From the IMG/VR virus record IMGVR_UViG_3300044712_001463: DNA of 64,000 nucleotides. One strand, given 5' to 3'. This document shows, piece by piece, positions 7,999-37,349 of this stretch. Below the pieces are notes generated by a model. That model saw only the letters and a list, made by a program, of their open reading frames with translations. It searched no databases and had not been told where the DNA came from. Position 1 is the first letter of the stretch. Each line of letters begins with the position of its first letter. Position numbers and translations under genes: made by a program. The stretch is from a virus. Lineage: Duplodnaviria; Heunggongvirae; Uroviricota; Caudoviricetes.

Positions 7999-8087
7999 AT
8001 AAAAAAGTAATAGTAAGAAGCCTTAAAATCTCTCAAAAAGGATTGAAATGAAACGGGAATCTTCCCTCAAGTCTTTAAAAGAGATAA

Positions 8088-11564: not shown

Positions 11565-11565
11565 T

Positions 11566-16362: not shown

Positions 16363-17222
16363 TCTCCTACAGAGCAAACCTATTTGAATCCTTGAATAAG
16401 TTAAATGTTCCACAACTCGGAGACATAGTTGAGACTATTACACCGAATGGAATAAAAATAGCTGGAATAGTTGCGACTGAGGATGGGGCGGACATTGATA
16501 AATCATATGAAGGGAAAAAAGGATATATCTATGTTTATCAGTTTCATTTCTATGATAAGAGTGGATCAGGATTATTTAGAGTTCCAATAAATAGTTTAAA
16601 AAAAATACCAGGAAAACAATTACCAACAAGACCTAAATATTCACCCGGACAGGAAATTGGTCGTGCAAAAATATTAGCAGTAAATTATTCAACAACTGAT
16701 TATCACTATCTTTGTGATGACAGAGGAAATAACAGGATTTGGGTGTATGAAAGTGATTTTGATAAAATCAAATTAAACAAAAAAGCCAATCTATTTGATT
16801 CCTTAAATAAACAAATAAATCCATTTAAGCCAGGCGATGTCTTCGTTCTCAAAAGCTCGAACTTTTTAAATGGAAAAGAATATCCATCTAATTCAATGTG
16901 GATTTATTCTCACAATAATAAATCCACGGGCTTGGCAGTTATGCAAATGAAGCATAGTGAAGAAGATGTTATTGAGATTAGTACTTCAAAAATAGGCTCC
17001 TTATTTAAATTTGTAAGACACTGCGATTTAATGGGATTCGAAATTGGGGATAAGGTAAGGTCTCCGCATGGTGAAGAATATTATATAAAATCCTTTGGCA
17101 TGAACGAAGTCGGAGATGGACAAGCCAAGGCTTATTGTTATAATTCTTTTCGTGGAATTAATCAAAAAGGATATGCGGATTGTGATGCCCAGTTATCCGA
17201 GTTAAAGAAGGTAAAAGAATGA
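16359..17222 (+). CDS. two-module leader family protein (D + B); internal KKANLFDSLNKQI at ~16785
   Basis: Start at ATG 16359; leader repeated internally. Confidence 0.7.
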   Translation: MISYRANLFESLNKLNVPQLGDIVETITPNGIKIAGIVATEDGADIDKSYEGKKGYIYVYQFHFYDKSGSGLFRVPINSLKKIPGKQLPTRPKYSPGQEIGRAKILAVNYSTTDYHYLCDDRGNNRIWVYESDFDKIKLNKKANLFDSLNKQINPFKPGDVFVLKSSNFLNGKEYPSNSMWIYSHNNKSTGLAVMQMKHSEEDVIEISTSKIGSLFKFVRHCDLMGFEIGDKVRSPHGEEYYIKSFGMNEVGDGQAKAYCYNSFRGINQKGYADCDAQLSELKKVKE

Positions 17223-17581
17223 TCTCCTACAGAGCAAATCTATTTGAGTCTCTTCAGAAACAAGTGCCTGTAAAATTTACTACAGGGGATATTATTTATA
17301 TTCCAAACAAAGAAATAGGTGTTTATTATAATGAAAATAGGATGTTTGTTCTTGATAGTGTCTTTGACAATAGAAGACATTCAATTCAAAACTTATTACC
17401 AGGCACTATTGATTCTAGAATAAATTGTCCTAAAGTAGCTTCAAATATAAATCAAAACTATGGCTTTCACTTTACTAACCTTGTTGTGAAATATAATCTA
17501 CATGGAAAAAACGTAGACACAAATATACAAAGATTAAAAGAAATGGCCAAAGACTTTGAAAATGAAAATTTCGAGGCATAA
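17219..17581 (+). CDS. leader family protein (MISYRANLFESLQKQ)
   Basis: ATGA coupling. Confidence 0.7.
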   Translation: MISYRANLFESLQKQVPVKFTTGDIIYIPNKEIGVYYNENRMFVLDSVFDNRRHSIQNLLPGTIDSRINCPKVASNINQNYGFHFTNLVVKYNLHGKNVDTNIQRLKEMAKDFENENFEA

Positions 17582-17583
17582 GA

Positions 17584-18558
17584 ATGATCTCCCATAGAGC
17601 AAATTTATTTGAGTCTATAAATAAACAAATGCCAAAAGTTGTTTTTGGACAAACTTGGATTGAGATAATTGACCCTAAGCCTTTCAATGAAATTTCTGAT
17701 TCTGATAACTACAAATCCAAACAAGTTTATTTACTTGGGTATGCTGGAATCGAATATATTGATGCACATAGAATTCAATTAATGGGAATAACCGATGAGA
17801 CACAACTTTGGGCAGAACATGAGATGGAAGAGGATAATTTTAATAAAATACCAAAAACAGCTTATAGAATAATATCATCACCATTACAATACAAATATAA
17901 AATAGGACAGCTAGTTTATAGTGATAGACAAGGGAACATATGGGAGATAGTAGGTTTTGTAACTGGAGAGCATTCTCCTGAATCAAAGGAATATTTGTGC
18001 AAAGATGTTGTAAGAGATGGTTTAGATACTGTTGTGCGAGAACAAGTAATATATGATCAATTAAAAAAATTAGGTCCAGCCAAAAAAGAGATTCGCAATG
18101 CAAATCTATTTGAATCTCTTAACAAGCATACAAATGCTTATCAGCCTGGGGATGTATTTGAAGCCAAAGGAACAAAGATAGTTAATGGGCTTTGGCATAT
18201 CTCAACAAAATATAGATATGTTTTTTCTCATAAAACTCTCCTAGGTAATATCATAATGCAAAGAGGCGGACACTCAAATGATTGGTCTGTCTTAAGCCTA
18301 GACCAAATAAAAGAATATTTTATTAAAGTTGGTCATGTAGAACTTTATGGATTCAAAGTAGGTGACTTTATACCGAAAGAACCTAATGCCTCCGAATCAG
18401 TATTGAGAAGAGAAATTATTGAAAAGTATCTTATAAGAATAGGTCTTGATTCAAATGACCTTAATTTAGCTAGAGGTTATTTCTCTCCTGAAAAAAATTC
18501 TGATGTGGCTACAGATGGCGTTGCTTTATTATTTATAAAGGACATAAAAAAACAATGA
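17584..18558 (+). CDS. two-module leader family protein (A + B); internal RNANLFESLNKH at ~18100
   Basis: MISHRANLFESINKQ; FGQTWIEIID. Confidence 0.7.
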   Translation: MISHRANLFESINKQMPKVVFGQTWIEIIDPKPFNEISDSDNYKSKQVYLLGYAGIEYIDAHRIQLMGITDETQLWAEHEMEEDNFNKIPKTAYRIISSPLQYKYKIGQLVYSDRQGNIWEIVGFVTGEHSPESKEYLCKDVVRDGLDTVVREQVIYDQLKKLGPAKKEIRNANLFESLNKHTNAYQPGDVFEAKGTKIVNGLWHISTKYRYVFSHKTLLGNIIMQRGGHSNDWSVLSLDQIKEYFIKVGHVELYGFKVGDFIPKEPNASESVLRREIIEKYLIRIGLDSNDLNLARGYFSPEKNSDVATDGVALLFIKDIKKQ

Positions 18559-19034
18559 TCTCCTACAGAGCAAATCTATTTGAGTCACTTCAGAAGCATA
18601 TAAATCTTTATACACCTGGAGATTTATTTGAATCTATTGTTGAATATAAGGAATTCCCACATCAAGGCGATATCGCTGGTAATATTAGAAAGGAAAAAGG
18701 CTACGCTTACCTTTTTTCACATATGAGCGTTGGTAAAATGATTTTAGTTCAAAGAAATCATGGGGCGAATATTATTGACCTAGACCCAAAAGATGTAAAA
18801 AAATATTTAAAGATTATAAGTCATATTGATTTTCTAGGATTCAAGGTTGGTGATGAAATTGTTCAAACTAATTATGAATTAACTGGCAGGCATTATAAAA
18901 TAACCTGCCTAGGACTAAGGTCTGATAATACACCTAAAGCCTATTGTCATGATGCAAGAGATAATGTTTTATATAGATGGGATCCTACTAGAAGTTGCAC
19001 TGAAATAGATCTTTCATTATATAAGAAGGTATAA
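18555..19034 (+). CDS. leader family protein, subtype B
   Basis: MISYRANLFESLQKH; GFKVGDEI. Confidence 0.7.
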   Translation: MISYRANLFESLQKHINLYTPGDLFESIVEYKEFPHQGDIAGNIRKEKGYAYLFSHMSVGKMILVQRNHGANIIDLDPKDVKKYLKIISHIDFLGFKVGDEIVQTNYELTGRHYKITCLGLRSDNTPKAYCHDARDNVLYRWDPTRSCTEIDLSLYKKV

Positions 19035-19038
19035 TCAA

Positions 19039-19491
19039 ATGATTTCTTACAGAACCTCAAATCTATTTGACTCCATTAAGAAACAAATGAATCCATTTAA
19101 GCCTGGAGATGTATTCACGGCTAAAGAAAAATTTCGTTTCCGTGATAGATTTGTTATAGAGCCAGGAATTAATTATATTTTTTCGCATATGAAAGATGAT
19201 AAAATTGTAATGCAAGAACAGGCAGAATGGAGAAGTTGGGGAGAGATTTCTCCTCAAGAAGTCATGAAGTATTTTAATAAAGTAGGAGAAGCAAACTTAT
19301 TTGGCTTTAAGGTAGGAGATAAAGTTGATATTCCTAGTGGAAGTGTAGTAAATCCACGTATAAATGGTTTATATATCATAAGAATAGGGCTTGCTGGTGG
19401 AGAGCCGTTTTCTGCAAGAGGATATTTTAATAGAGGAAAAGAATCAGAAACTCCAGATTATGGATATGATCTTAAGGACATAAAAAAATGA
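19039..19491 (+). CDS. leader family protein, subtype B
   Basis: MISYRTSNLFDSIKKQ; FGFKVGDKV. Confidence 0.7.
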   Translation: MISYRTSNLFDSIKKQMNPFKPGDVFTAKEKFRFRDRFVIEPGINYIFSHMKDDKIVMQEQAEWRSWGEISPQEVMKYFNKVGEANLFGFKVGDKVDIPSGSVVNPRINGLYIIRIGLAGGEPFSARGYFNRGKESETPDYGYDLKDIKK

Positions 19492-19934
19492 TTTCTTACA
19501 GAGCAAATTTATTTGAATCACTTAATAAGCAATTAAATCTCGGTCTTCAAGATGGAGACTTTATAGAATTTAGGGGAAGAACCTATGTTGTCATGCAAAA
19601 TTATATATGGCAACAAGGGAAAGAATTGTTTTTAGAATGTATGGACGATACTGGTAAAAATATTGCGATTAAAAAAGAAGACCTTGAAAAGGAAAAATAT
19701 AAAAAAATAAATCCGCCAATAAAGCCTGCACACAAAGTAGGAGACATGATTGATGGTTGGAAGATAATATCAATTCTATATTCAATTGGTTCTAAAAAAT
19801 TTCAATATGCCGCTATAAATGATGAATTAAAAGAAGCCGTAGAGTTTTATGATTTTGAAGATTTGAAAAGAAAGAAAAGGTCTAATTATAGTAGCCATTA
19901 TTACACAACTTATAAAGAATGGACTTCAAGATGA
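19488..19934 (+). CDS. leader family protein
   Basis: MISYRANLFESLNKQ; PPIKPAHKVGDMI. Confidence 0.7.
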   Translation: MISYRANLFESLNKQLNLGLQDGDFIEFRGRTYVVMQNYIWQQGKELFLECMDDTGKNIAIKKEDLEKEKYKKINPPIKPAHKVGDMIDGWKIISILYSIGSKKFQYAAINDELKEAVEFYDFEDLKRKKRSNYSSHYYTTYKEWTSR

Positions 19935-20374
19935 TTTCCTATAGAGCAAACCTATTTGATTCGATTAGAAAACAAACGTTCTTTAATGGAGAGCCTAAGA
20001 TAGGTGATATATTCTGGGACGGTAAAAATATACATATTTATTTGTGTGAATTGAATGATCATAATTGGACATGGGTTCATTATCTTTATTCAAAAGATCT
20101 TAAAAACTATAGTTATCTTAGCAACGATGAAAAACCACAAAATCTTAAAAATTACAGATTAATAGGAAATGTATATAAGTTAAAAAATATAGAAAGCAGA
20201 AGGGATTCCACCTTCGGCTTAGCGTCATTTCCAGGATTTTCAGATTTTATCGCATGGTTAAATCTAAATGAAGATAAAAATCTAAAAGAACAAGATATAT
20301 TAAACAAAATAAAAGAACTTCCATTTATGATTTGGGCAGCAAAAACACCAAATCGTTATGAGGAAATTAAATGA
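19931..20374 (+). CDS. leader family protein, subtype C (GDIFWDGKN)
   Basis: Start at ATG 19931. Confidence 0.7.
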   Translation: MISYRANLFDSIRKQTFFNGEPKIGDIFWDGKNIHIYLCELNDHNWTWVHYLYSKDLKNYSYLSNDEKPQNLKNYRLIGNVYKLKNIESRRDSTFGLASFPGFSDFIAWLNLNEDKNLKEQDILNKIKELPFMIWAAKTPNRYEEIK

Positions 20375-20874
20375 TTTCTTACAGAGCAAATTTATTTGAG
20401 TCTTTGAATAAACAAATACCAAAGGTCATCTTTGGGCAAACCTGGATTAAGATAATTAATCCTGAATTATTCAATAAATATTCAAATGCCTTGTCTAGTC
20501 TCCAGACTTATAAAGCTGGCGAAGTTTATCTTATCAGTTCTACTGCAAGGCTAAAGAAATCTGGTAAGATAATACTCATGGGTATTGTAAGTACAATGTG
20601 GGCTTCGCATATTTTAAAGGAAGAAGACTTTAATAAAATACCCAAACAAGATTATTTAATAGTACCATCTCCATTAGACTATAAATACAAAATAGGACAA
20701 AAGGTTAGATTCGGTGCCGTAAGAATAGAATATAAGATTATCTATTTCGCCACGGGCAATAAGCGCCCAGGCTCTAAGGATTATGCTATACAATCTGCCG
20801 AGGAAGAGCGTAATAATGATTTTTCTATAACCTCTGAGGAGACTTTAACTCCTTGGGAGGAGAGCGCACAATGA
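20371..20874 (+). CDS. leader family protein, subtype A
   Basis: MISYRANLFESLNKQIPKVIFGQTWIKII. Confidence 0.7.
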   Translation: MISYRANLFESLNKQIPKVIFGQTWIKIINPELFNKYSNALSSLQTYKAGEVYLISSTARLKKSGKIILMGIVSTMWASHILKEEDFNKIPKQDYLIVPSPLDYKYKIGQKVRFGAVRIEYKIIYFATGNKRPGSKDYAIQSAEEERNNDFSITSEETLTPWEESAQ

Positions 20875-21356
20875 TTTCTTACAGAGCCAACCTATTTGAG
20901 TCCCTTAATAAACAAATACCAAGAGTTGTCTTTGGACAAACGTGGATTGAGGTAATTGATCCAAAATCATTTGAACCATTTATCTCAGAGCGATACGCCA
21001 ACAAAGGCGTGCCATTTTTAGTGGGAGCACCATATATAGGTGATTTCCAAAGAAAAAGAATAACACTAATGGCGGCTAGTGGTTCTGCGGCTGATTGGAG
21101 TAATCGTAGTTTATCATTTGAAGATTTCCAAAAAATACCAAAGCAAGCCTACAAAATAGTGCCCTCTCCAATACCATATAAATTTAAAATTGGCGACGAG
21201 GTCATGTCAAATGTAGTTGGCAATAAAGGAAAAGTTGTTGCTTATTATTGTAATGGACAGAAAAGTGAAAACAAGCAAGCATATTGGATACAATTAAATG
21301 ATGGGACTAAGATGCAGAAATATGAAGAACATATTACAGGAGTATCTAATTCATGA
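20871..21356 (+). CDS. leader family protein, subtype A
   Basis: Start at ATG 20871; FGQTWIEVID...PYKFKIGDEV. Confidence 0.7.
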   Translation: MISYRANLFESLNKQIPRVVFGQTWIEVIDPKSFEPFISERYANKGVPFLVGAPYIGDFQRKRITLMAASGSAADWSNRSLSFEDFQKIPKQAYKIVPSPIPYKFKIGDEVMSNVVGNKGKVVAYYCNGQKSENKQAYWIQLNDGTKMQKYEEHITGVSNS

Positions 21357-21817
21357 TTTCCTACAGAGCAAATTTATTTGATTCCTTGAATAAACAAATA
21401 AATCCCTATAAGTCAGGAGATTTATTTAAGGCTATTGATTTTTTTAATATTAATGGCATGATAGATAAAAGAGGTAGAAATGTTAATAAAAATGATATAT
21501 TTATTCTGTCACACAAAATAGGAAATAAGTGTGTAATGCAAAGACAAGACTGTGAAGGTTGTGTTGTTTTATTTGACAAGAAGCAAATAGATGAACATTT
21601 TAAGTTATATAAACATGAGGATTTTGGACAATTTTCCATAGGGCAGAAGGTTTGCCCAAGAGATTTGTCAGATCGTCGCGCAGGAGAAGCAAGATATATC
21701 ATTAGATTTGGATTAACAGGAGAATTAGAACCTAAAGCCTATTTAGCATGGAGTCCTAGCGAAAATACTGCGGATGCTGGAGACTATAAACTTATAGATT
21801 TGAGGATTATAGAATGA
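21353..21817 (+). CDS. leader family protein, subtype B
   Basis: MISYRANLFDSLNKQ. Confidence 0.7.
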   Translation: MISYRANLFDSLNKQINPYKSGDLFKAIDFFNINGMIDKRGRNVNKNDIFILSHKIGNKCVMQRQDCEGCVVLFDKKQIDEHFKLYKHEDFGQFSIGQKVCPRDLSDRRAGEARYIIRFGLTGELEPKAYLAWSPSENTADAGDYKLIDLRIIE

Positions 21818-22479
21818 TTTCCTACAGACATTCAAACCTATTTGAATCCATTAAGAAGCAAATGCCCGCGAATCCAAAAATCGGGGATATTTATTATTGT
21901 CCTACAAGAAAATCCTTTGCTATTTTAAGATCGATAAGGGATATGTCCTGGGCCATCGTATATCGGGTAAGGGATAATAGATATACTACATGGAATAATA
22001 AGTCTTTAAACATCCCGGGTAGTATGTCCAAAATAGGAAATATGTTCGAATTAAAAAATTTGGAAATCCCTGAGCCGCCATATATAATATCATCTTTATC
22101 TTTATCATCTATGGTAAGAAAAATACGACAAGGCCAAGACCCTACAAAAGAATGGGTTCTTGATGAATTTAAAAACCTAACAAGCGCAGAAATCGCAAAA
22201 GAGGTCTTAGGCCAAGAGCATTATGAAAGAGAAGATAAAAAGACAGTAGCCAACCTATTTGAATCTCTTAATAAACATATAAATCATAAATATGTTATTA
22301 TAGGTCGGTATAATCCTAAGTCTCCTGATATATATTACTTTGGAAAAGAAAGAGGAACAAAGACATATACCTACGACATACAACTAGCAAAGGTATTCAA
22401 TAGTAGGGCAGAGGCCGAGAAAATTTTGAACAGTATATCGGATAAAAGATATTACAGAATCATAGAGGTCAATTCATGA
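21814..22479 (+). CDS. two-module leader family protein; internal KKTVANLFESLNKHI at ~22249
   Basis: MISYRHSNLFESIKKQ. Confidence 0.7.
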   Translation: MISYRHSNLFESIKKQMPANPKIGDIYYCPTRKSFAILRSIRDMSWAIVYRVRDNRYTTWNNKSLNIPGSMSKIGNMFELKNLEIPEPPYIISSLSLSSMVRKIRQGQDPTKEWVLDEFKNLTSAEIAKEVLGQEHYEREDKKTVANLFESLNKHINHKYVIIGRYNPKSPDIYYFGKERGTKTYTYDIQLAKVFNSRAEAEKILNSISDKRYYRIIEVNS

Positions 22480-23387
22480 TTTCTTACAGAGCAAACCTAT
22501 TTGAGTCCCTTCAGAAGCAAATGCCTGTCAATCTAGGAGATATAGTTGAAACTACTGCTACTGGTGGATATAGAATAGTTGGAATAGTTGCCACTAGAGA
22601 AGGGCAAGATATAAGTGACAAAAACAAAGGTGAAAAGGGATATGTATATATTTATGGATTTAATACAAAACTCAAGGAAGGTAATGGATTATTTCTAGTG
22701 CCAATAAGTAGTTTGAAAAAAATACCAGGTGAGCAATTGCCAACAAGACCCAAATACTCCCCAGGCCAAACGATTGGGAACAACATAAAAATCATTGCGG
22801 TTAATTATGCAAAAGATGATTATAGTTATCTTTGTGATAGTAGTGAAGATGGTCGGCGTTGGGGTCGGTGTTGGTATGATGAAAAAGAAATCGATCAAAT
22901 GCAATTATCCAAGAAGGCCAACCTATTTGAATCTATTAAGAAACAAATACCTAATGTTATCTTTGGAGAGACTTGGATTGAGATAATCGATCCAAAGCCA
23001 TTTAATTCGGCTAACATGCATAATTCATTTAATAATGGAGATGTATATTTAGTATCTTATCATGATAGAGAAAATATAGAAAGAGGATTGCTTTATTTAA
23101 TGGGAATAACTAGCAGGACATTCTCATGGGGTGAACACGAACTTACAAAAGAGCAATTTAATAAAATTCCTAAATCAGCTTATAAAGTAATACCATCGCC
23201 ATTAGAATATAAATATAAGATAGGCCAAGAGTTTAATGATTATGAACTAACTTTTAAAATAATCGCCCTCGTAACTGGATACAATGGAATAGAGCATCAA
23301 GATTATCTATGCGAGCAAGTAGGCTCTAGGGAAACTAGAATTTACAAACAAGAGGTTATTGATGGGCTTATGGGAGAGAACCAATGA
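22476..23387 (+). CDS. two-module leader family protein (D + A); internal KKANLFESIKKQI at ~22917
   Basis: MISYRANLFESLQKQ; FGETWIEIID. Confidence 0.7.
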   Translation: MISYRANLFESLQKQMPVNLGDIVETTATGGYRIVGIVATREGQDISDKNKGEKGYVYIYGFNTKLKEGNGLFLVPISSLKKIPGEQLPTRPKYSPGQTIGNNIKIIAVNYAKDDYSYLCDSSEDGRRWGRCWYDEKEIDQMQLSKKANLFESIKKQIPNVIFGETWIEIIDPKPFNSANMHNSFNNGDVYLVSYHDRENIERGLLYLMGITSRTFSWGEHELTKEQFNKIPKSAYKVIPSPLEYKYKIGQEFNDYELTFKIIALVTGYNGIEHQDYLCEQVGSRETRIYKQEVIDGLMGENQ

Positions 23388-23848
23388 TATCCTACAGGGC
23401 AAATCTATTCGAATCACTTAATAAGCAAAATCCAGTAATCTTTGGACAGACCTGGATTAAAATAATCGACTCTAAGCCTTTCCTTGAAATTCCAAATGTA
23501 AAGGATATTAGTGATGGAGATATTTTTCTTGTTTCTTATAAAAGTAAAGTTGATATGAGGGATGGTATTATATCACTTATGGGACTGAAGGTCGAAAACC
23601 TTATATGGGATAATCATAGTTTAAGAATAGATAGATTTAAATCTATATCTAGATCCGCATATAGAATCGTGCCATGCCCATTGAATTATAAATACAAAAT
23701 AGGGCAGACGGTTTATACTGGTCGCCCTGACAAGGTAATATCCCTTGCAACTGGCATCGGAGAACCAGAAACAAAATGTTATTTATTAGAACATAGTGCC
23801 CCTTATCCTATCCAAGAAAGTCAATTATCGGAAAGGGCTAGGAAATGA
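23384..23848 (+). CDS. leader family protein, subtype A
   Basis: MISYRANLFESLNKQNPVIFGQTWIKII. Confidence 0.7.
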   Translation: MISYRANLFESLNKQNPVIFGQTWIKIIDSKPFLEIPNVKDISDGDIFLVSYKSKVDMRDGIISLMGLKVENLIWDNHSLRIDRFKSISRSAYRIVPCPLNYKYKIGQTVYTGRPDKVISLATGIGEPETKCYLLEHSAPYPIQESQLSERARK

Positions 23849-24336
23849 TCTCTTACCGAGCAAATCTATTTGAGTCTCTTAATAAGCAAATAAATACCCT
23901 TAGGCCAGGGGACATACTTGAGCCTAAGTCTAATATTATGGAGGCTATTATTTCCAAAAAAGGGATAAGATGGGTTTTAGCTCCTAATGATATGTACAAC
24001 ATATCGCATATAAAAGGGAATTATTCAGTATTCGTAATAAACGGCAGTAGACAGACTTGGATTGAATTAACGCCAGAAGAAATACATAAATACTATAACA
24101 AAATAGGTGAGGCCAACCTATATGGATTTAAGGCAGGGGATAAGATTCCAATTTCTTGTGTTGAGAGAATGACAAATGTTCGGACACCTACAAATGAACT
24201 ATTTTTATATGAAATAATGGTTGTTGGAAAAGAAAGCCCACTATCAATTGGATTATTAGGAGCGGAAAATAGATTAGACCAAGCTTTTGCAACCTATCTT
24301 CCCCTAGAAGATCTAGCAAAGAGGTGTGGTAAATGA
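23845..24336 (+). CDS. leader family protein, subtype B
   Basis: MISYRANLFESLNKQ; YGFKAGDKI. Confidence 0.7.
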   Translation: MISYRANLFESLNKQINTLRPGDILEPKSNIMEAIISKKGIRWVLAPNDMYNISHIKGNYSVFVINGSRQTWIELTPEEIHKYYNKIGEANLYGFKAGDKIPISCVERMTNVRTPTNELFLYEIMVVGKESPLSIGLLGAENRLDQAFATYLPLEDLAKRCGK

Positions 24337-24794
24337 TCTCCTATAGAAATTCAAACCTATTTGAATCTATTAAGAAACAAATACTTCCTACTCCTGGGAT
24401 TATTTATCAGCCTATTGAAGATAAGCCTTGGCCTAACCCCTATTTAAATGTTAGTTTTTCAAAACAATGTTTTTATTTGTTCTCGCATATTAGGGATGGT
24501 AAGATGGTTCTTATTAGGAGAATGGCAGGAGATTGGGTTTTCGAAGTAAGTCATGATGAGATAAATAGTATTTTAAAGCCCGTAGGCCAAGCCGATTTAA
24601 AGGGTTTCAAAGTCGGGGATAAGATTCGCCGTAAAGGATTAAGTGAAATATTTATAATAGTAGGATTCGGCTTGACTGGCGATAATACCCCGAAAGCCTA
24701 TTGTATTCAAGAAGGAGCAGATATTGAACCTATCTGGGACTTCCATTTTACTAGTGCAATTTCATTAATGGTAATGGAAAAGGTATCCCAATGA
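24333..24794 (+). CDS. leader family protein, subtype B (PWPNP)
   Basis: MISYRNSNLFESIKKQ; KGFKVGDKI. Confidence 0.7.
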   Translation: MISYRNSNLFESIKKQILPTPGIIYQPIEDKPWPNPYLNVSFSKQCFYLFSHIRDGKMVLIRRMAGDWVFEVSHDEINSILKPVGQADLKGFKVGDKIRRKGLSEIFIIVGFGLTGDNTPKAYCIQEGADIEPIWDFHFTSAISLMVMEKVSQ

Positions 24795-25267
24795 TCTCCT
24801 ACCGGACCTCAAACCTATTCGATTCTATTAAGAAACAAATACCCTTTAGGTCAGGGGACATACTCAAACCTATTTCACCTACCAAAATGGATTGGAACGG
24901 ATGGGAGATAAATCCCGATAGGCCATACAATGTTTCGCATATAACGGAGAATGGATTAGTAGTCGTTCAAAATGGATTCTTATCTAGTGATTTCGCCAAA
25001 CTAACACTAGAAGATGCAAAATTGCTATTTGAAAAAATAGGTGAGTCCAACCTCTATGGTTTCAAGGTAGGGGATATGGTCTGTCCTGAATATGTTCGCG
25101 GGGTAAGGCAAACTGAAAAGACTTGTTATTACCTAAATAAAATACTTGTCAACGCAGCAGGTAAAGCATTTGGATTCTTTACTAAAGATAATAATAATGA
25201 TGCTAAGAAATTTGATTCATATTGTGAATTATCTAAATTGCAAAAACAAGGCGGTTCTGTCCAGTAA
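24791..25267 (+). CDS. leader family protein, subtype B
   Basis: MISYRTSNLFDSIKKQ; YGFKVGDMV. Confidence 0.7.
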   Translation: MISYRTSNLFDSIKKQIPFRSGDILKPISPTKMDWNGWEINPDRPYNVSHITENGLVVVQNGFLSSDFAKLTLEDAKLLFEKIGESNLYGFKVGDMVCPEYVRGVRQTEKTCYYLNKILVNAAGKAFGFFTKDNNNDAKKFDSYCELSKLQKQGGSVQ

Positions 25268-25584
25268 TCGGGTTTTACCCCGTAGGCCAAAGCATTAATT
25301 TTGTCCGGCGATTGGAAACATTGTAAAACTTTATAAGAAACTAGTAGTGTGTGGTAAAGTAATAAAAGCCCATAGGCCAAAGGATAAATTGAGTAATTGT
25401 TGCAAATGGTCTATTGTGGTTTATTGTGGGTAGGAATAGGATAGATTGGATAAGAGGGGAGGTGTAGTGTCATTCACCTCTCTTAATAAGATCTACAAAT
25501 CACCACCCTACCCTGGTTTGTTAAGTCATATTAAGTTTTGTCTATCGTTAATTAATAAATCTTAATAAGAAGGATTTATACAAC

Positions 25585-26118
25585 ATGATAAGTTATAGGA
25601 ATGCAAATATATTTGAATCATTAAAGAAGCAGATGTATCCTCTTGTTGGAGGCATATATATTTGTTTAGAGGATAAGCCCTGGCCTAACCCACGGAACAG
25701 GCATTTGGCTATTATAGAAGGTGAGAGATATATCTTTTCACATGTAAGAGATGGCAAGATGGTTCTAGTGCAAAAGATGCAGGGTGGGAATGTTTTCGAG
25801 GTAGGTCCAGGGGATATAAAAAAATACTTTAGTTTTCTTGACCAGGGTGATTTAAGAGGTTTCAAAGTAGGAGACATGGTTGTAAGGGGAGACGTTGAGG
25901 TTCTTGAAGTTCCAGGTAGAATGCATGAGGCCGGCAGGTCAATTCCTAGATATAAAATAATGGCATTCGGATTAGGAATAAGACTAGCACCCAAGGCATA
26001 TTGTTTAAGAGAGGGCTCTGGAACTGAAGAGGGAATTGGACTAGAATATTTGAAATGGAGTTTCGCCCATTGCGACTCAGAACTTCTTTTAGAACAGATA
26101 AAGAAGGCTGACAAATGA
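25585..26118 (+). CDS. leader family protein, subtype B (PWPNP); first gene after internal non-coding gap
   Basis: MISYRNANIFESLKKQ. Confidence 0.7.
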   Translation: MISYRNANIFESLKKQMYPLVGGIYICLEDKPWPNPRNRHLAIIEGERYIFSHVRDGKMVLVQKMQGGNVFEVGPGDIKKYFSFLDQGDLRGFKVGDMVVRGDVEVLEVPGRMHEAGRSIPRYKIMAFGLGIRLAPKAYCLREGSGTEEGIGLEYLKWSFAHCDSELLLEQIKKADK

Positions 26119-26591
26119 TCTCTTACAGAGCAAATCTATTCGAATCTATTAATAAGATAAATGCGCCTAGGCCCGGGGTTGTTTATGAAGGTATTGTGAA
26201 TAAGGATTGGCCTAACCCGAGGCACAATGATATTGGGATTACAGAAGGGGAGCAATATATTTTCTCTCATATGAGAAATGGCAAGATGGTTCTTGTTAGA
26301 AAAATGGCTGGTTCTTGGATTTTTGAAGTAAGTCCTAACGAGATAAATAAATACTTTAAACCCATAGGCCAAGCAAACTTACAGGGGTATGAAATAGGAG
26401 ATAAGATATATAGTGAAATGTATGGCAATGGAACCATAACAGGGTTCGGCCTAGCGGATATTGAAAGAATAAAAGCATATATAATTAGAGAAGGGATTGT
26501 TGAGGATGAGGATGACAAATGGGATTTTATATCTGGTAACGGTCACGATGATCCTTTATTGAGCAGAGTAGAAAAAGGATGGAAGAAATGA
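26115..26591 (+). CDS. leader family protein, subtype B
   Basis: MISYRANLFESINKI; KPIGQANLQGYEIGDKI. Confidence 0.7.
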   Translation: MISYRANLFESINKINAPRPGVVYEGIVNKDWPNPRHNDIGITEGEQYIFSHMRNGKMVLVRKMAGSWIFEVSPNEINKYFKPIGQANLQGYEIGDKIYSEMYGNGTITGFGLADIERIKAYIIREGIVEDEDDKWDFISGNGHDDPLLSRVEKGWKK

Positions 26592-27073
26592 TTTCTTATC
26601 GTAAGTCCAACTTATTTGAATCCTTAAACAAAATGAACATCTGTAGTCCAGGTGATATTTTTGAAGGCATTGCAAATATGCCCTGGCCTCATAGCGAAAA
26701 GCAGGTATGGATATGGAAGGGAACTCGTTATATATTTTCACATATGTATAATGGTAAGATGGTTCTCATACAGAAGAACGAAGGTAGCAGGATTTTCTTT
26801 GTATCACCTAGCGAATTAAATAAATATTTTAAGCGCATAGGCCATGCTGATTTTCAAGGACTTAAAGTAGGGGATTATGTTTATACTGAGAGCAGGGAGA
26901 CTGGGACTTTCAGGCATTATATAATAACTGCCCTGGGCCTATACGATGATGACAGTCCGATGCCCTGGTGTAGGTGGATACATGATTCAGTTCCATTTAA
27001 TCCAGAGAGGCCAACAAACAGAGCAGAAAGATTTTACTTAAAAGAGATTATTAAGAATCCACATCAGGGGTAG
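26588..27073 (+). CDS. leader family protein, subtype B
   Basis: Start at ATG 26588; MISYRKSNLFESLNKM. Confidence 0.7.
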   Translation: MISYRKSNLFESLNKMNICSPGDIFEGIANMPWPHSEKQVWIWKGTRYIFSHMYNGKMVLIQKNEGSRIFFVSPSELNKYFKRIGHADFQGLKVGDYVYTESRETGTFRHYIITALGLYDDDSPMPWCRWIHDSVPFNPERPTNRAERFYLKEIIKNPHQG

Positions 27074-27078
27074 GCCAA

Positions 27079-27618
27079 ATGATTTCTTATCGTGCAAATT
27101 TATTTGAATCCTTGAACAAGGTTGTCAAAAAGATTACTGAGTCTGGGCAATACTGCGTAGGCCCAGACGGAATTGTTTATTTTGTTAATGCTGGCGAAAA
27201 CATAGGGGACTTTTATTTAATGTCCGAAAAGGGTAATGTTACTAAGACCACGAACCTTGATGAGATTAATAAGAATTATCAATATACGACACCTAGGCCA
27301 GGGTGGGTAACTAAGAAAGTCAAAGACGGAACTCGATATGCTCATTATCCTCATAGGGCTGGGGATAAATATGAGGCAAGAGGTGCTGACGGAAGCTATA
27401 GGCTTATATGGATTTCATGCGGTTGCTATATAACTTCATTTAAGAATTTTTCTAAGATGATGTTAAGTTATAGAGCTGCAACTATGCCAAATCCGGAAGC
27501 AAGGAAGCCAGAAAGAAAACCTAGTTCGATAACGCACGAAGATGTTCTCATCAAAGATATATTGGATGATAATAATCAATGGGTTAATAATGATACAAGA
27601 GGCCCAGGGGGATACTGA
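27079..27618 (+). CDS. leader family protein
   Basis: MISYRANLFESLNKV; internal MMLSYRAA echo. Confidence 0.65.
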   Translation: MISYRANLFESLNKVVKKITESGQYCVGPDGIVYFVNAGENIGDFYLMSEKGNVTKTTNLDEINKNYQYTTPRPGWVTKKVKDGTRYAHYPHRAGDKYEARGADGSYRLIWISCGCYITSFKNFSKMMLSYRAATMPNPEARKPERKPSSITHEDVLIKDILDDNNQWVNNDTRGPGGY

Positions 27619-27621
27619 TAA

Positions 27622-28059
27622 ATGATTTCTTATCGTGCAAATTTATTTGAATCCTTAAAGAAGCAAATCAACCCTGGGCCTCCTAGGGTTGGTGATTTCT
27701 TTTGGGATAGCGAGAACCAGGTATTTATTCTCAAGACATGTGACCAGAACAATTCAAAATATGTTTTCGGACAGGCTTATAAAGATAGGGAAGATGGTGA
27801 GTTCCTATATAAATTCAGAGATAATGCTACTATCACTGGCAGACGTTTGGGCAATGTTCTAGATATGAATCCTAAAGCGGCTGAGGCTTTTAAAAGGAAT
27901 GAGATAAATTGCATAGAAACATTCAAGTTCATACAAAACCTTTGTGAATGGCTTGACAAGGCAAATATAACCGAGCGTGGTATCATAGAATATGTAAGAG
28001 CCTATAAGTTCGGCTGGATTAAAATAACTGCTGGTGGTGAAGCAGGAGTAGAACTATGA
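27622..28059 (+). CDS. leader family protein, subtype C (GDFFWDSEN)
   Basis: MISYRANLFESLKKQ. Confidence 0.7.
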   Translation: MISYRANLFESLKKQINPGPPRVGDFFWDSENQVFILKTCDQNNSKYVFGQAYKDREDGEFLYKFRDNATITGRRLGNVLDMNPKAAEAFKRNEINCIETFKFIQNLCEWLDKANITERGIIEYVRAYKFGWIKITAGGEAGVEL

Positions 28060-28502
28060 TTTCTTACCGGGCAAACTTATTTGAATCCTTGAACAGGGTG
28101 GTGGCTAAACAGTATCAGCCTGGGGATGTATTTAAGGAAAGTGGTATTGCTGATAGTTTTTCCATCTTAATGATTGAACGGGTAGGTAGAGAAAGAGGTG
28201 GACAAACTCTTTATTGGCTTCATAGAAAAGGTCTTCCCGATCAGAACATAAAGCTTACCCAGAAACAATTAGATGACAAGGCTAGTTTTAATTATATTAG
28301 GCACTTGGACTTGGGTGACTGGAAGGTAGGAGACTTTTGTAAATTAAACGAATCCTTCCAGGGAGATCAAGAAACATATAAAATAGAAACAATATTCCTA
28401 GATAACTTCGATATGGTCAGGGTAGGCTTAAATAAAAACTGGAGTTATCATAATGTTGCTGAAAAAACCGTGCTGCTTGTCCATATAAAAAAGCCTTCCT
28501 AG
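28056..28502 (+). CDS. leader family protein (last array member)
   Basis: MISYRANLFESLNRV; ATGA coupling. Confidence 0.7.
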   Translation: MISYRANLFESLNRVVAKQYQPGDVFKESGIADSFSILMIERVGRERGGQTLYWLHRKGLPDQNIKLTQKQLDDKASFNYIRHLDLGDWKVGDFCKLNESFQGDQETYKIETIFLDNFDMVRVGLNKNWSYHNVAEKTVLLVHIKKPS

Positions 28503-28646
28503 TTCTTGGTAAGATTTTTTAGCACAGGCTAAAGGCTTTTTCGGACTAGAACCTGACATAATACATATAATATGCACACAAAGAAGACTGCTCTGTAACA
28601 GCAGTCTTTTTCTTTGTCTGGGGATCTTCTGGGGATCATATTAGAA

Positions 28647-28666
28647 CCTACTTAAATATAAGTAGA
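28647..28666. repeat. inter-cassette palindrome CCTACTTA-AATA-TAAGTAGa (imperfect right arm)
   Basis: Member of 14-copy family. Confidence 0.7.
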
Positions 28667-28691
28667 ATGCGGATAGCCTAGGCTAGGTGTC

Positions 28692-28719
28692 TTGACATGT
28701 GTCCTAGGGCGAGTATAAT
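28692..28719 (+). promoter_or_regulatory. promoter (TTGACAtgt variant)
   Basis: -35/-10 consensus. Confidence 0.6.
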
Positions 28720-28889
28720 CAGGGTATGAATCAACCACTTCTCAGGAGGCTCTCATGGCGACTTTTAGGAAAGTTCATAAGAAGGGGACTTGGCGATAAA
28801 AGGTGTTTATTTATTACTCCTTTTTTGATATAATTTGATCCAGGAGGTAGTTCTCCATTTCGGAGGACGGATCAAAAAGGGGCAATCAA

Positions 28890-29621: not shown

Positions 29622-29846
29622 ATGAGACGCAAGCGTTGTCCTGTATGTGGAGACCTTCCCGAGTATTGTTGCAGTGGAGATAAGATCGGTTTCTATGGTC
29701 ACTTCTTGGAGTGCCCTAGACATAGGTGTAGGCTCAGGACCCAGTATTATGATCATCCAGACAAAGCATTGCAAGCCTGGAACGAACGACTCGCACTCTG
29801 TTATGCAGGAAAGTTAGCTGACCTGAAGCCTAAGAGGAAGTCATGA
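29622..29846 (+). CDS. Cys-rich zinc-finger-like protein (CPVCG...CPRHRC)
   Basis: Promoter 29574, RBS aaggagg; ATGA coupled to tilS. Confidence 0.55.
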   Translation: MRRKRCPVCGDLPEYCCSGDKIGFYGHFLECPRHRCRLRTQYYDHPDKALQAWNERLALCYAGKLADLKPKRKS

Positions 29847-30475
29847 TCCGTTTTGAAAAGCGACTAGTGGATAAGAGCAAGCATGTGCACGTAGCGTGCT
29901 CAGGTGGAGTTGACTCCATGGCAGTGTGTGACTTCCTGAAGAGGGGTGGCTTCAATGTCCGCCCCGTCTTCTTCAACCATGGCACTGAGACGAGTCGTGC
30001 GGCGGAGATCTTCCTGGAGAACTATTTCACTGTAGGCTTCACCAAAGGCAAGTTGTATGGCGAGAAGCCTAAGGATAAGTCCTGGGAGGAATACTGGCGC
30101 GATGAGCGCTATAAGTTCTTCAACAGCCTAGGCTTGGAGACAATTGTCACTGCGCATCACCTAGATGACTGTGTCGAATCTTACGTCTTCAGTGCACTGC
30201 ATGGGAATGCCAAACTTCCCATGGTTCACCGTAGGCTCGGGCGCAGTATCGTCGTCCGCCCCTTCATGATGACCTCGAAGAGCGACCTAGTCGCCTGGGC
30301 TAAGCAGCATAATGTGCCCTGGATGGAAGATGCTAGCAACTTCGATGTCTCAGTGGGAACCCGGAACTACGTGCGGCATGCGTTGATGCCTGGCATCCTT
30401 CGAGTCAACCCTGGTATTTCCAAGGTGGTGGCTAAGAAGGTTAGAGAATTATACTTGACAAGTTTGGCGAAGTGA
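29843..30475 (+). CDS. tilS: tRNA(Ile)-lysidine synthetase TilS-like (N-terminal catalytic domain only, 210 aa)
   Basis: PP-loop ACSGGVDSMAV; FNHGT; TAHHLDDCVESYVFSALHG; RPFMM..K.DLVAWAK.H..PWMEDASN. Confidence 0.75.
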   Translation: MIRFEKRLVDKSKHVHVACSGGVDSMAVCDFLKRGGFNVRPVFFNHGTETSRAAEIFLENYFTVGFTKGKLYGEKPKDKSWEEYWRDERYKFFNSLGLETIVTAHHLDDCVESYVFSALHGNAKLPMVHRRLGRSIVVRPFMMTSKSDLVAWAKQHNVPWMEDASNFDVSVGTRNYVRHALMPGILRVNPGISKVVAKKVRELYLTSLAK

Positions 30476-30493: not shown

Positions 30494-30570
30494 GGGAACC
30501 TAGCTCAATTGGTTAGAGCAAGCGACTCATAATCGCTAGGTTCAGGGTTCAAGTCCCTGGGTTCCCACCA
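30494..30570 (+). tRNA. tRNA with CAT anticodon (Met elongator or Ile2/lysidine substrate)
   Basis: Cloverleaf, acceptor GGGAACC/GGTTCCC, loop CTCATAA, CCA encoded; directly downstream of tilS and promoter 30455. Confidence 0.8.
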
Positions 30571-34494: not shown

Positions 34495-34522
34495 TTGACA
34501 AGTTCCCTAATGTGAGTATAAT
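34495..34522 (+). promoter_or_regulatory. cassette promoter driving tRNA cluster
   Basis: consensus; 14 nt upstream of tRNA-Lys. Confidence 0.7.
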
Positions 34523-34535
34523 AAAGCTCACAGAT

Positions 34536-34611
34536 GGGTGTGTAGCTCAGTTGGTAGAGTAGCGGACTTTTAATCCGTTTGTCGTGAGTTCGATCCTCAC
34601 CGCACCCACCA
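34536..34611 (+). tRNA. tRNA-Lys (anticodon TTT)
   Basis: Cloverleaf, loop CTTTTAA, CCA; own promoter 34495. Confidence 0.8.
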
Positions 34612-34937
34612 TATCTTTGAACCAGGGAATCCCTCCTGGTAATCAGTCCTAGGGGAGACCATCGAGTTCGTCGTCGTAAGAGGTGCGGTGGGAGACCAAA
34701 TAAGCCTTTCAAGCTCTGGGTATGAGAAGTGATATCCCTCATATCATAGCCTTGATAGCATGTGTCCTCCCACCCACAGCCCATGGTGTAATACTCTCCA
34801 AGAGTAGCAAGTAAAACGCGGCGTCGGTACACGCCGACCCTAGGACAGGGTGAATAGATTTACCCAGGACTCGGTTCTTTAAGGCAGCGAGTTGGTGCCT
34901 ACGAGGAATCGGTGCTTCTGAGTCTTGGGCGTATTTT

Positions 34938-35012
34938 GCAGGCTTAATTCAGTGGTAGAATGTCTCGTTGCCAACGAGAATGTCACCGGTTCGAGCCCGG
35001 TAGCCTGCTCCA
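34938..35012 (+). tRNA. tRNA-Gly (anticodon GCC)
   Basis: Acceptor GCAGGCT/AGCCTGC, loop TTGCCAA, CCA. Confidence 0.75.
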
Positions 35013-35020
35013 ATAGTTTC

Positions 35021-35096
35021 GCCGCGATAGCTCAGTTGGTAGAGCACCTGCCTGAAGAGCAGGGTGTCGGGGGTTCGACTCCCTCTTGCGGCACCA
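35021..35096 (+). tRNA. tRNA-Phe (anticodon GAA)
   Basis: Acceptor GCCGCGA/TTGCGGC, loop CTGAAGA, CCA. Confidence 0.75.
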
Positions 35097-35106
35097 AAAG
35101 TTATGA

Positions 35107-35183
35107 TGCGGGATAGAGCAGCCCGGTAGCTCGTCAGGTTCATACCCTGAAGGTCGCTGGTTCAAATCCAGCTCCCGCACCCA
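35107..35183 (+). tRNA. tRNA with CAT anticodon (Met or Ile2), U1-A72
   Basis: Acceptor TGCGGGA/TCCCGCA, loop TTCATAC, T-loop TTCAAAT, CCA. Confidence 0.65.
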
Positions 35184-35477
35184 ATATTCCAAGAAGTAAA
35201 ACACATACTCGTTTTCATAGGTGCTCACATGGGATGCATGCCACATTTTAATTAGTAAGGTGCCCTTAGAGTTCTCTTCCAGAGCCTGGGGACCAAAGTC
35301 AGCGACCGCCCCTGAAGCGACGGTATCGGGACAGAGGTTCTAGTCAGGGACAGTGAAGAGAGTGTCAACGGTGTCGAGCCGGGGTAAAATCCGTAGAGAC
35401 GCAACCGCTTTGAGAGGGAGTCCTGCCCCAATAGGTATAGTATCAAAAATTAGGTCTAGGAAGACTTTCTTAGACGA

Positions 35478-35556
35478 GACTCCCTGGTAGTTTAGTGGCA
35501 AAACGCCCGCATTATAAGCGGGAAACGTCCGGCATCGAAGCCGAACCCTAGGAGTA
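35478..35556 (+). pseudogene. tRNA-like remnant with TAT anticodon loop (possible degenerate tRNA-Ile UAU)
   Basis: Good D-arm (GTTT/AAAC) and anticodon arm (CCCGC-ATTATAA-GCGGG) but defective T-arm and acceptor; embedded in long hairpin. Confidence 0.3.
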
Positions 35557-35671
35557 GTCTTAGAAAGCACAACACCTAGAAGCCTTATGGCTCTTCGAGT
35601 CGTTGAGAGACGGAGAGAAGTCCTAAGTTTTGATACTCAATTATGTTTATATATAATACTATGGAAGACAA

Positions 35672-35712
35672 TAAGCCCTCGGACGCATTAGCGACTGTGG
35701 GCTTTTATTTTG
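35672..35712 (+). terminator. rho-independent terminator ending tRNA-cluster transcript
   Basis: aagccctcgg...ctgtgggcttttatttt. Confidence 0.55.
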
Positions 35713-35715
35713 CCC

Positions 35716-35743
35716 TTGACAAGTAGGCTAGGATATGTATAAT
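35716..35743 (+). promoter_or_regulatory. cassette promoter
   Basis: consensus. Confidence 0.7.
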
Positions 35744-36782: not shown

Positions 36783-36986
36783 GTTGGGAGTAGACCAGAT
36801 AGGATGTCCGAGACCGGGCACCTGAGCGCGAATGCTGGCTACCGTGCGCTACATTCTGAAAGCGCCACATCTTCGAGTCCTCGTAGGGAAACGGTCCAAC
36901 CCTGTTAAGAGCAGGTATCGAAAAATGCGGAAGCCCTCCGTTCCCTTCGGGGCGATAATAGAGGAAACCACTACGAGAGATAGGGA

Positions 36987-37016
36987 GAGGAGCCATTAGA
37001 GGCTCCTCTTCTTTGT
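36987..37016 (+). terminator. rho-independent terminator
   Basis: agaggagccattagaggctcctcttctttg. Confidence 0.6.
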
Positions 37017-37018
37017 AC

Positions 37019-37046
37019 TTGACAAGTTAGCGAGTCCGTGCATAAT
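37019..37046 (+). promoter_or_regulatory. cassette promoter (-10 CATAAT) driving ORF-less RNA
   Basis: acTTGACAagt...tgCATAATg. Confidence 0.6.
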
Positions 37047-37290
37047 GGAGTTGTAAGCACACAGGCTCCCTCGGGCTCAACTAGGCGAATCGCTGAGGGC
37101 ATTGAAGGGAGCCATTCGATACTGAGGCTCGTCATGAGCATAATTCGGAAAGCCAAAGGAGTCAAAGTCAAGGTGCGGTCTGGCGGACGCCCTTTACTTA
37201 TCTCCAAGTAAAGTCTTCGAGGGGCTACCTTCGGAGTGGTGCGCGAGGCGCTAGAGCCCTGGGAAATACTCCTGGGGCTCTATGCTTTTG
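37047..37290 (+). ncRNA. candidate small structured RNA (promoter + terminator unit with no ORF)
   Basis: Promoter 37019, terminator 37253-37290, no +-strand ORF >=60 aa, multiple UUCG-loop hairpins. Confidence 0.4.
37253..37290 (+). terminator. rho-independent terminator of ORF-less RNA unit
   Basis: agagccctgggaaatactcctggggctctatgcttttg. Confidence 0.6.
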
Positions 37291-37292
37291 TC

Positions 37293-37320
37293 TTGACAAG
37301 TAGCCCTAGATATGTATAAT
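37293..37320 (+). promoter_or_regulatory. cassette promoter
   Basis: consensus. Confidence 0.7.
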
Positions 37321-37349
37321 AGAGTCATCCTTCTTCTAAGAGGCTAGCC

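Follow-up and report, generated by a model that had tools for sequence, protein, structure and literature searches.

A spacer in a phage tRNA cluster probably encodes a member of a widespread structured RNA family

The tRNA operon and its two spacers

We analysed a 64,000-nt stretch of DNA, here called the window, from a virus of the Caudoviricetes (Duplodnaviria; Heunggongvirae; Uroviricota; IMG/VR record IMGVR_UViG_3300044712_001463). The window looks to be part of a large phage of a previously unsampled kind. Its genes are all on the + strand, as are all features located in it below unless stated otherwise. Our subject is a tRNA operon and the two spacers between its genes that contain no open reading frame (ORF). 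The operon is preceded by a sigma-70 consensus promoter at 34495–34522 (TTGACA-16-TATAAT, 12/12 match). It contains the genes for tRNA-Lys(UUU) at 34536–34611 (Rfam tRNA model, 70.8 bits), tRNA-Gly(GCC) at 34938–35012, tRNA-Phe(GAA) at 35021–35096 and an initiator-like tRNA-Met(CAU) at 35107–35183, all four supported by ARAGORN and Rfam and all with an encoded CCA. These tRNA ends define spacer 1 as 34612–34937 (326 nt) and spacer 2 as 35184 to ~35711 (~525 nt). At 35673–35711, a bulged 12-bp hairpin (AAGCCC...GGGCUU) followed by UUUUAUUUU resembles an intrinsic terminator; the terminator scan did not call it, and it was found from the sequence and the fold of the 3' end. The next consensus promoter begins at 35716. 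An earlier note on this DNA, made from the sequence alone, took the region from promoter 34495 to this hairpin as a single transcription unit, which is plausible.

The same note described the spacers as ORF-free over ~325 and ~500 nt, and this description is correct. The + strand frames of both spacers hold 5–13 stops each, and the longest + strand ORFs amount to 30–45 amino acids. All three stop types occur in every + frame, so that a recoded genetic code rescues no ORF. Its description of the spacers as GC-rich does not hold, since the GC content of the gaps containing them is 0.47–0.48, compared with 0.48–0.52 in the surrounding 28–54 kb. Its description of them as hairpin-dense holds in part, as only some regions fold better than chance. 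As a whole, spacer 1 folds with a z score of −2.8 and spacer 2 with −2.7, while 200-nt windows across 29–42 kb of the phage genome have a mean z of −1.0 with a standard deviation (sd) of 1.4. Given this background, thermodynamic stability is weak evidence on its own. Within spacer 2, the segment 35436–35640 is strongly structured (z = −4.48, 0/200 shuffles as stable), whereas 35184–35438 folds no better than its shuffles (z = +1.06).

The Rfam and tRNA-remnant searches that had been proposed assign spacer 1 to no family. At E ≤ 10, Rfam 15 returns for the spacers a UAU tRNA-like element in spacer 2, besides two chance-level minus-strand matches (ROSE_3 and sobemo_FSE, 14.5–14.6 bits); no tRNA remnant is found in spacer 1 at this threshold. 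The families without a match in the spacers include GOLLD, ROOL, transfer-messenger RNA (tmRNA), YrlA, group I intron, ribozymes like that of the hepatitis delta virus (HDV), twister, hammerhead, RNase P and 6S RNA.

A conserved structured RNA in spacer 1

Close relatives of the phage are found neither in INPHARED nor, through the flanking proteins, in IMG/VR; the only contig matched is identical to the window. Because Rfam was empty and the neighbouring ORFs are orphans, distant relatives were fetched through homologues of the lysidine synthase TilS. The nearest homologues, with 50–55% identity, come from jumbo or huge phages. By nhmmer, spacer 1 aligns to an ORF-free spacer of two of these loci, L008 and L010 (E = 0.0017 for L008). 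L008 is a distant relative whose TilS is 52% identical to that of the window. In both loci, the spacer directly precedes tRNA-Phe and tRNA-Met(CAU), two tRNAs that also neighbour spacer 1. Common to the window and L008 are a 5' hairpin, the motifs AAUCAG and AGGGGA, and the 3' block UAAAACG-NGGCGU-NGGUNC-ACGCC-N-ACCCU.

The window copy of this RNA spans 34621–34846 (226 nt) and is supported by nhmmer, the covariance model R1 and a hidden Markov model (HMM). It starts 9 nt after the 3' end of tRNA-Lys and is positioned between tRNA-Lys and tRNA-Gly, downstream of promoter 34495. Hairpin P1 (34621–34640) is followed by AAUCAG (34641–34646). The 8-bp helix P2 is formed by UCCUAGGG at 34647–34654 and CCCUAGGA at 34838–34845, with GAG after its 5' strand. 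P3 pairs 34658–34662 with 34783–34787, encloses a variable 120-nt domain and is followed by GUAA. P5 (34792–34806), J5/6 (34807–34818; GCAAGUAAAACG), P6 (34819–34836) and A34837 complete the structure. The 3' module at 34807–34837 reads GCAAGUAAAACG-CGGCGU-CGGUAC-ACGCCG-A and matches the family consensus. All 28 of the 28 modelled pairs are standard in the window copy, and the proposed structure is its unconstrained minimum free energy (MFE) fold. Trained on 17 other members, with no window sequence included, an HMM of the 3' module finds a single match in the window, at 34791–34835 (E = 5e-8).

Across the family, the core follows the order P1 hairpin, AAUCAG, P2 (8 bp), GAN, P3 with a variable insert of ~12 to ~130 nt, GNAA, P5, J5/6, P6, A and P2'. 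P2, P3, P5 and the J5/6–P6 strand and hairpin are predicted to meet in a four-way junction. The invariant module is GNAAS-UAAAACG-NGGCGU-YGNUNC-ACGCCN-A, in which P6 corresponds to NGGCGU-YGNUNC-ACGCCN and the strand before it is rich in purines; P5 is a small hairpin.

The helices of this core covary. In the curated alignment A3 of the window and L008 (MAFFT pair alignment), 12/28 pairs show compensatory changes and none is broken; the long-range helix P2 changes from UCCUAGGG/CCCUAGGA in the window to CAACAGGG/CCCUGUUG in L008. Among the 39 distinct sequences, 94.0% of cells are paired, compared with 69.5% after shuffling and 26–46% with the partners slid, and double changes occur in 23/28 pairs; none of 500 shuffles reaches any of these measures. 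P2 is 97.4% paired across the family with double changes in 8/8 pairs, and P1, P3 and P5 are 86–90% paired with double changes in every pair. P2 covaries again in the Arthrobacter phage Kumotta, where it reads GCAUGGAG/CUCCAUGC. The MAFFT pair alignment, the Kumotta copy and the circularly permuted copies described below provide support that is independent of the model-fitted alignment. Because the RNA is conserved and covarying across dozens of unrelated phages, we conclude that spacer 1 encodes a structured RNA.

Downstream of the RNA and directly upstream of tRNA-Gly, a long irregular hairpin (CCCAGGACUC...GAGUCUUGGG, then CGUAUUUU) occupies 34863–34937 in the MFE fold. It is a possible partial terminator or processing stem. 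It is not conserved in the relatives, with no nhmmer match in 107 loci.

Framed, permuted and naked copies

The RNA occurs in three presentations, which we call framed, circularly permuted and naked. In framed copies, P2' is followed by a hairpin, and the nucleotides downstream of this hairpin pair with nucleotides upstream of the core. The result is a cloverleaf with P1 at the position of the D-arm, P2 at that of the anticodon arm and the extra hairpin at that of the T-arm. The terminal helix has at least 7 bp in 25/34 distinct copies and varies in sequence between them, as in TGGGGCGGCTG/CAGCCGCCCCA, TTGGCGGGCGGGG/CCCCGCCCGCCAG and GTTGTGGTG/CGCCACAAC plus CCA. A T-loop such as GGTTCGAATC or GGUUCGAAUC is present just after P2' in 11/34 distinct copies, and framed copies carry CCA-like tails. 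In the P22-like phage CUS-3, the terminal helix GUUGUGGUG/CGCCACAAC is followed by CCA. The copy of locus L118 has a tRNA-Leu-type D-arm, GCGGAAUUGGUAGACGC, and that of L113 is likewise framed.

Five copies (Psa21, L036/L083, L038, L076 and L022) are circularly permuted, with the order P5, J5/6, P6, A, P2 strand, hairpin-UAAUCAG, P2 strand, GAN and P3 strand. Although the sequence of P2 differs in each of them, 8/8 pairs form in four of the five, and 6/8 in L038. These copies have neither acceptor nor T-arm.

The copies of the window and L008 are naked. They lack a terminal helix and a T-arm, and genuine tRNAs flank the RNA. The window copy contains no T-loop-like motif, and a 6-bp GU-rich helix of its ends is no better than in shuffles (p ~0.9); the same holds for L008. 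The tRNA-like frame is absent from both and is therefore treated as a feature of a subgroup and not as a defining one. We also considered an intron inserted in a tRNA gene. This reading was rejected, as the intron mode of ARAGORN gave only chimeras of neighbouring tRNAs and one spurious call.

Distribution of the family

With both copies as queries, blastn finds the 3' module in the Pseudomonas jumbo phages Psa21 and D6 and in the P22-like phages CUS-3, IME10 and Huey. Lengthening the 3'-module query brings in phages of Acinetobacter, Yersinia, Erwinia, Vibrio, Aeromonas, Arthrobacter and Rhodococcus. Model R1 scores the CUS-3 copy with 46.6 bits and the Psa21 copy with 32.9 bits, and overall recovers 84 copies with 39 distinct sequences. 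The pattern TAAAACGNGGCGTNGNTNCACGCC matches 88 IMG/VR loci and 12 genome loci. Five of the genome loci are non-coding; they belong to a Dyadobacter isolate genome and to metagenome-assembled genomes labelled Bacilli, Lachnospiraceae, Ktedonobacterales and Thermotogae. The family probably also reaches Firmicutes, Bacteroidota and Chloroflexota. Two first patterns for IMG/VR, which required ACCCU or the 5' motifs, gave no matches. The single pattern scan of a metagenome collection gave 5 chance matches and none of the known positives, which this collection evidently lacks.

The other 7/12 genome matches are the first codons of rplT, the gene of ribosomal protein L20, and were treated as coding and not as family members. 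The loci concerned are L110, L112, L115–L117, L119 and L120, and their start regions form the same hairpin as the RNA module. In one frame, the module GUAAAACG-N-GGCGU-NGNUNC-ACGCC reads VKRGVxxR, the N-terminus of L20, which is either coincidence or mimicry.

No curated resource names the family, which is previously uncurated. In scans of eight other loci at E ≤ 1 or 0.5, the RNA has no Rfam match, no paper in the library searched contains the invariant sequence, and in RefSeq the element is unannotated in the 117 Escherichia coli genomes that carry a full copy.

Genomic contexts and a role in cis

In about half of 30 inspected loci, the RNA shares the strand with a tRNA array and is located within this array or next to it. 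It is likewise found beside tRNAs in Psa21 and in Yersinia phage fHe-Yen9-04. In temperate phages, it is part of the late or lysis operon leader. The CUS-3 copy occupies the leader between Q and holin, between two terminators; this leader is the slot in which lambdoid phages carry tRNA genes. In a Vibrio phage the RNA is upstream of the endolysin gene, and in Kumotta it precedes the HNH/terminase region. The distance between RNA and tRNA ranges from ~10 to ~90 nt, with the tRNA on either side. This variation argues against a ribozyme that processes precise ends.

Several features were observed around these copies. In CUS-3 (L018; 1203–1280 and 1668–1705), the RNA is preceded by a first terminator hairpin and by a promoter-like site that overlaps the end of Q, and is followed by a second terminator before the holin gene. 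The 291-nt stretch of CUS-3 that contains the RNA is bordered by the annotated 'boundary sequences' bsq4 and bsq3; 117 complete E. coli genomes contain it in full, counted as 80% of its length or more, and 220 further genomes contain part of it. HNH endonuclease genes are found ~0.1–0.5 kb downstream of three RNA copies or their tRNA clusters (Psa21, L019; Kumotta, L122; fHe-Yen9-04, L123). An HNH_3 gene is also present at L017, a TilS locus in which no RNA copy was detected.

These contexts bear on the question whether the RNA acts in cis, as an element of the host transcript for processing, insulation, antitermination or attenuation of tRNA and late operons, and not as a free RNA in trans. 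The RNA is always encoded on the transcribed strand within long transcribed leaders or tRNA arrays, the CUS-3 copy is placed between the first late terminator and a second one, and in the window a hairpin and U-tract follow the RNA. Such a role nevertheless appears unlikely to us. The spacing to the tRNA and its side vary, as described, and no terminator is consistently adjacent to the copies. Many copies come with an acceptor-like helix, T-arm and CCA-like tail of their own, and this suggests that they are excised as separate molecules; circular permutation is typical of RNAs in which the folded core counts and not the position in the transcript.

Comparison with known systems

A stable RNA released from the tRNA transcript, as we favour for spacer 1, has several counterparts. 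The earlier note pointed to the stable RNAs of T4. The species 1 and 2 RNAs of T4 (rnaC and rnaD) are indeed small stable RNAs of unassigned role; their genes close a phage tRNA cluster and are transcribed together with tRNAs. With 139 and 119 nt in the T4 record, they are shorter than the window RNA, and model R1 finds no match at E ≤ 1 in T4 69000–74000, which contains rnaC, rnaD and eight tRNAs. The likeness is therefore one of position, and rnaC and rnaD are positional analogues only, not family members. GOLLD and ROOL are structured phage and prophage RNAs whose function is not known and which often adjoin tRNA genes. Compared with them, the present family is smaller (~100–270 nt), has another conserved core and has no Rfam match. 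Its compact members include the 98-nt copy of L071 and the permuted Psa21 copy.

Some published RNAs were considered as counterparts. YrlA consists of a tRNA-mimicking module fused to another RNA module, occurs in some phages and is a substrate of tRNA enzymes; its order is T, acceptor-like stem, D, its two ends are part of the Ro-binding stem, it carries a GNCGAA motif and it is encoded near an rsr (TROVE) gene (PMC4201824). The family shares with YrlA the joining of a tRNA-mimicking part to another RNA module, while the YrlA order, the placement of the ends in a Ro-binding stem, the GNCGAA motif and the rsr linkage do not apply to it. In the window, the Rfam YrlA model reaches only 16.7–17.5 bits, on genuine tRNA genes. 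HDV-like theta ribozymes are small structured RNAs within phage tRNA arrays, proposed to serve tRNA maturation; they abut the tRNA end with the cleavage site and fold into a double pseudoknot (PMC10879173). The family differs in its variable spacing to the tRNA and in its four-way junction, and known ribozyme models of Rfam, HDV-type included, match neither the window nor eight other loci. Theta ribozymes, YrlA and Pas sRNA were rejected as published counterparts, as these papers describe different RNAs.

The framed copies have the topology of the engineered 'tRNA scaffold', in which a foreign RNA domain replaces the anticodon loop of a tRNA and tRNA enzymes process and stabilise the insert. 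The scaffold is a laboratory design, whereas the framed copies are natural; the window copy is without the frame.

Another comparison is with tmRNA. Framed copies enclose a long helix, which leads to a separate functional domain, between a tRNA-like acceptor and T-arm, and natural circular permutations exist for tmRNA and for the family. One could accordingly read the RNA as a tRNA-derived, aminoacylatable molecule that works on or near the ribosome or a synthetase like tmRNA, with the junction domain in place of the anticodon arm. The acceptor-like, D-like and T-arm elements and the CCA-like tails of framed copies would fit, as would L118 with its tRNA-Leu-type D-arm and A73; leucyl-tRNA synthetase (LeuRS) does not read the anticodon. 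We consider this improbable. ARAGORN and the Rfam tmRNA and tRNA models leave the family loci unscored, G3:U70 is absent from the acceptor-like helices read (L118, L023 type and CUS-3), and no tag reading frame was recognised in the inspected copies, among which no systematic tag search was made. Unlike tmRNA, the family keeps its core in the window, in L008 and in the permuted copies, where acceptor and T-arm are missing.

Spacer 2 and the filler hypothesis

Spacer 2 consists of two different parts. The stretch 35184–35438, which folds like its shuffles, has no Rfam match at E ≤ 10. A 200-nt compound hairpin follows at 35439–35637, whose outer 16-nt arms (35439–35454 and 35622–35637) form an inverted repeat. 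Inside this hairpin, an aberrant tRNA-like element is located at 35481–35554. It scores 32.1 bits with the Rfam tRNA model (gathering score 29), and ARAGORN does not call it. An 11-bp perfect stem, CUUUCUUAGAC/GUCUUAGAAAG, prolongs its acceptor stem. The anticodon loop is AUUAUAA, the T-arm CGGC-AUCGAA-GCCG is non-canonical, and the acceptor stem has the mismatches C4-A69 and U5-U68. No CCA is encoded, in contrast to 4/4 operon tRNAs. The UAU tRNA-like remnant within a long imperfect hairpin, as reported in the earlier note, is thus borne out. It is most likely a decaying tRNA-Ile(UAU) gene held in an inverted repeat.

No homologue of spacer 2 was found: blastn at E ≤ 10 returns only AT-rich chance matches, and nhmmer finds none in the 107 loci. 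The UAU element shows no specific similarity to other phage tRNA-Ile(UAU) genes or to an odd tRNA-like gene in L002. The latter, at 8082–8153 of a syntenic distant relative, is itself aberrant and scores 39.1 bits with Rfam. Its T-arm is canonical; its anticodon loop, CCUUAUAU, has 8 nt, and ARAGORN assigns it an anticodon of 2 bases. No paralogy was detected between the two spacers, with the window tRNAs or elsewhere in the window.

An adjacent 108-aa ORF has no homologue among 5.8 billion proteins, and 10 small neighbouring ORFs match neither Pfam nor PHROGs. As this ORF is an orphan and nine small neighbours match no family, the region seems to turn over quickly. Together with the shuffle-like fold of 35184–35438, the lack of homologues of spacer 2, the resemblance of the UAU element to a decaying tRNA and the folding z of spacer 1 near the genome background, this suggests that both spacers could be non-functional filler, decayed tRNA genes or small ORFs with residual or accidental hairpins; for the two spacers jointly we rate this chance as slight, and for spacer 1 it is excluded by the conservation across phages of different bacterial phyla and by the compensatory changes. 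Filler is the most likely reading of 35184–35438, which is probably decayed sequence, and a reasonable one for the UAU hairpin, although 35439–35637 may still give a processed stable RNA.

Further features of the window

On the + strand at 28000–55000, perfect sigma-70 consensus promoters occur more than 20 times, about one per small gene, and share an extended cTTGACAAGT motif. Examples are 28692, 30455, 32011, 33520, 34495, 35716 and 36490; shuffles predict far fewer. Inside the operon, a promoter-like site at 35630–35657 (TTGATA-16-TATAAT, 11/12), ~15 nt upstream of the terminator hairpin, would yield a very short transcript.

Other genes concern tRNA modification. An MnmA-like tRNA 2-thiouridylase gene is located at 1009–2031. 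A short TilS-like lysidine synthase (210 aa) is encoded at 29843–30475, with a CAU-anticodon tRNA (30494–30570) directly after it; in contigs of jumbo and huge phages, short TilS proteins make up a large family. At 8600–28500, ~35 tandem paralogous ORFs of ~150 aa each have the common N-terminus MISYRANLFESLNKQ. This block is AT-rich (GC 0.32–0.38, compared with ~0.50 at 28–54 kb), and a scan of three of its ORFs gave no Pfam or PHROGs match above threshold. Two further gaps, 36783–37349 (567 nt) and 28503–28889 (387 nt), contain no + strand ORF of at least 60 aa and no Rfam match at the gathering threshold; some windows of the first fold at z down to −4.5.

Discussion

We conclude that spacer 1 is probably the gene for a stable structured RNA of a widespread phage family, and that spacer 2 combines a probable, degenerate tRNA pseudogene with sequence that has probably decayed. 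The earlier proposal, that both spacers could be processed stable RNAs or decayed tRNAs, is partly confirmed in what it observed and partly supported in how this was interpreted. A structured RNA is upheld for spacer 1 by conservation and covariation, with its processing suggested by context, and falls away for 35184–35438, which has neither structure nor homologue; decayed tRNA probably applies to the UAU element and not to spacer 1. The real finding is narrower and stronger than what had been proposed.

In the mechanism that we envisage, the RNA would be transcribed from promoter 34495 in one transcript with tRNA-Lys, tRNA-Gly, tRNA-Phe and tRNA-Met. It would be freed by the enzymes that mature tRNAs, through 3' trimming after tRNA-Lys and RNase P cleavage at tRNA-Gly. 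It would then act in trans through the invariant J5/6–P6 module, which would most likely bind a partner that widely different bacteria or phages have in common. In many other phages, the domain appears to replace the anticodon arm of a tRNA-shaped frame, and this frame would recruit the machinery of tRNA maturation and stabilisation. The window copy, without a frame, would rely on its neighbouring tRNAs.

Several points weigh against this interpretation. No copy was found in the fetched stretch of L006, a relative that carries 30 tRNAs, so that the RNA is dispensable or patchily distributed. The idea of a tRNA frame is not directly applicable to the window and L008, as both lack the terminal helix and the T-arm. 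Judged by thermodynamics alone, the folding of spacer 1 exceeds the genome background by only ~1.3 sd. The pairing counts of the 39 sequences are inflated, because their alignment, A4, was fitted to the structure of the model. The invariance of P6 is partly ascertained by the search pattern; P6 is nonetheless identical in the copies that nhmmer or blastn had found before the pattern was used. The members of the family are known from their sequence and predicted fold. A catalogue of ~8,500 candidate RNAs from IMG/VR may already hold part of the motif (PMC10690425).

Beyond a structured RNA gene in spacer 1, there might tentatively be a new functional RNA class, carried as cargo of the tRNA system in phages of at least two bacterial phyla (Proteobacteria and Actinobacteria), probably of more, and in some cases inserted into a tRNA body where the anticodon arm would otherwise be. 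A specific biochemical task would then fall to its near-invariant 24-nt junction/hairpin module. This task could be catalysis or the binding of a universally conserved host factor or small molecule; through such binding the RNA could, for example, act as a decoy or sponge and so counter a host defence that is directed at tRNAs or relies on nucleotide signals. If this proposal is true, RNA cargo in a tRNA body would be a natural precedent for the engineered 'tRNA scaffold'.

The usual annotation of phage tRNA clusters is tRNAs plus junk, and here a spacer of such a cluster is a member of an RNA family with high conservation. The family model explains long 'empty' gaps in many phage genomes and can be used for their annotation. 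Small size, an invariant core, naturally permuted and tRNA-framed versions and the presence in tractable E. coli prophages (CUS-3 and IME10) make the RNA accessible to experiment; E. coli ATCC 11775 and RS218 carry a CUS-3-type prophage. With GOLLD, ROOL and the stable RNAs of T4, the family is part of the unexplained RNA cargo that phage tRNA regions carry. Its members occur in jumbo phages, in phages of Actinobacteria and in the P22-like prophages of 117 complete E. coli genomes, the type strain included.

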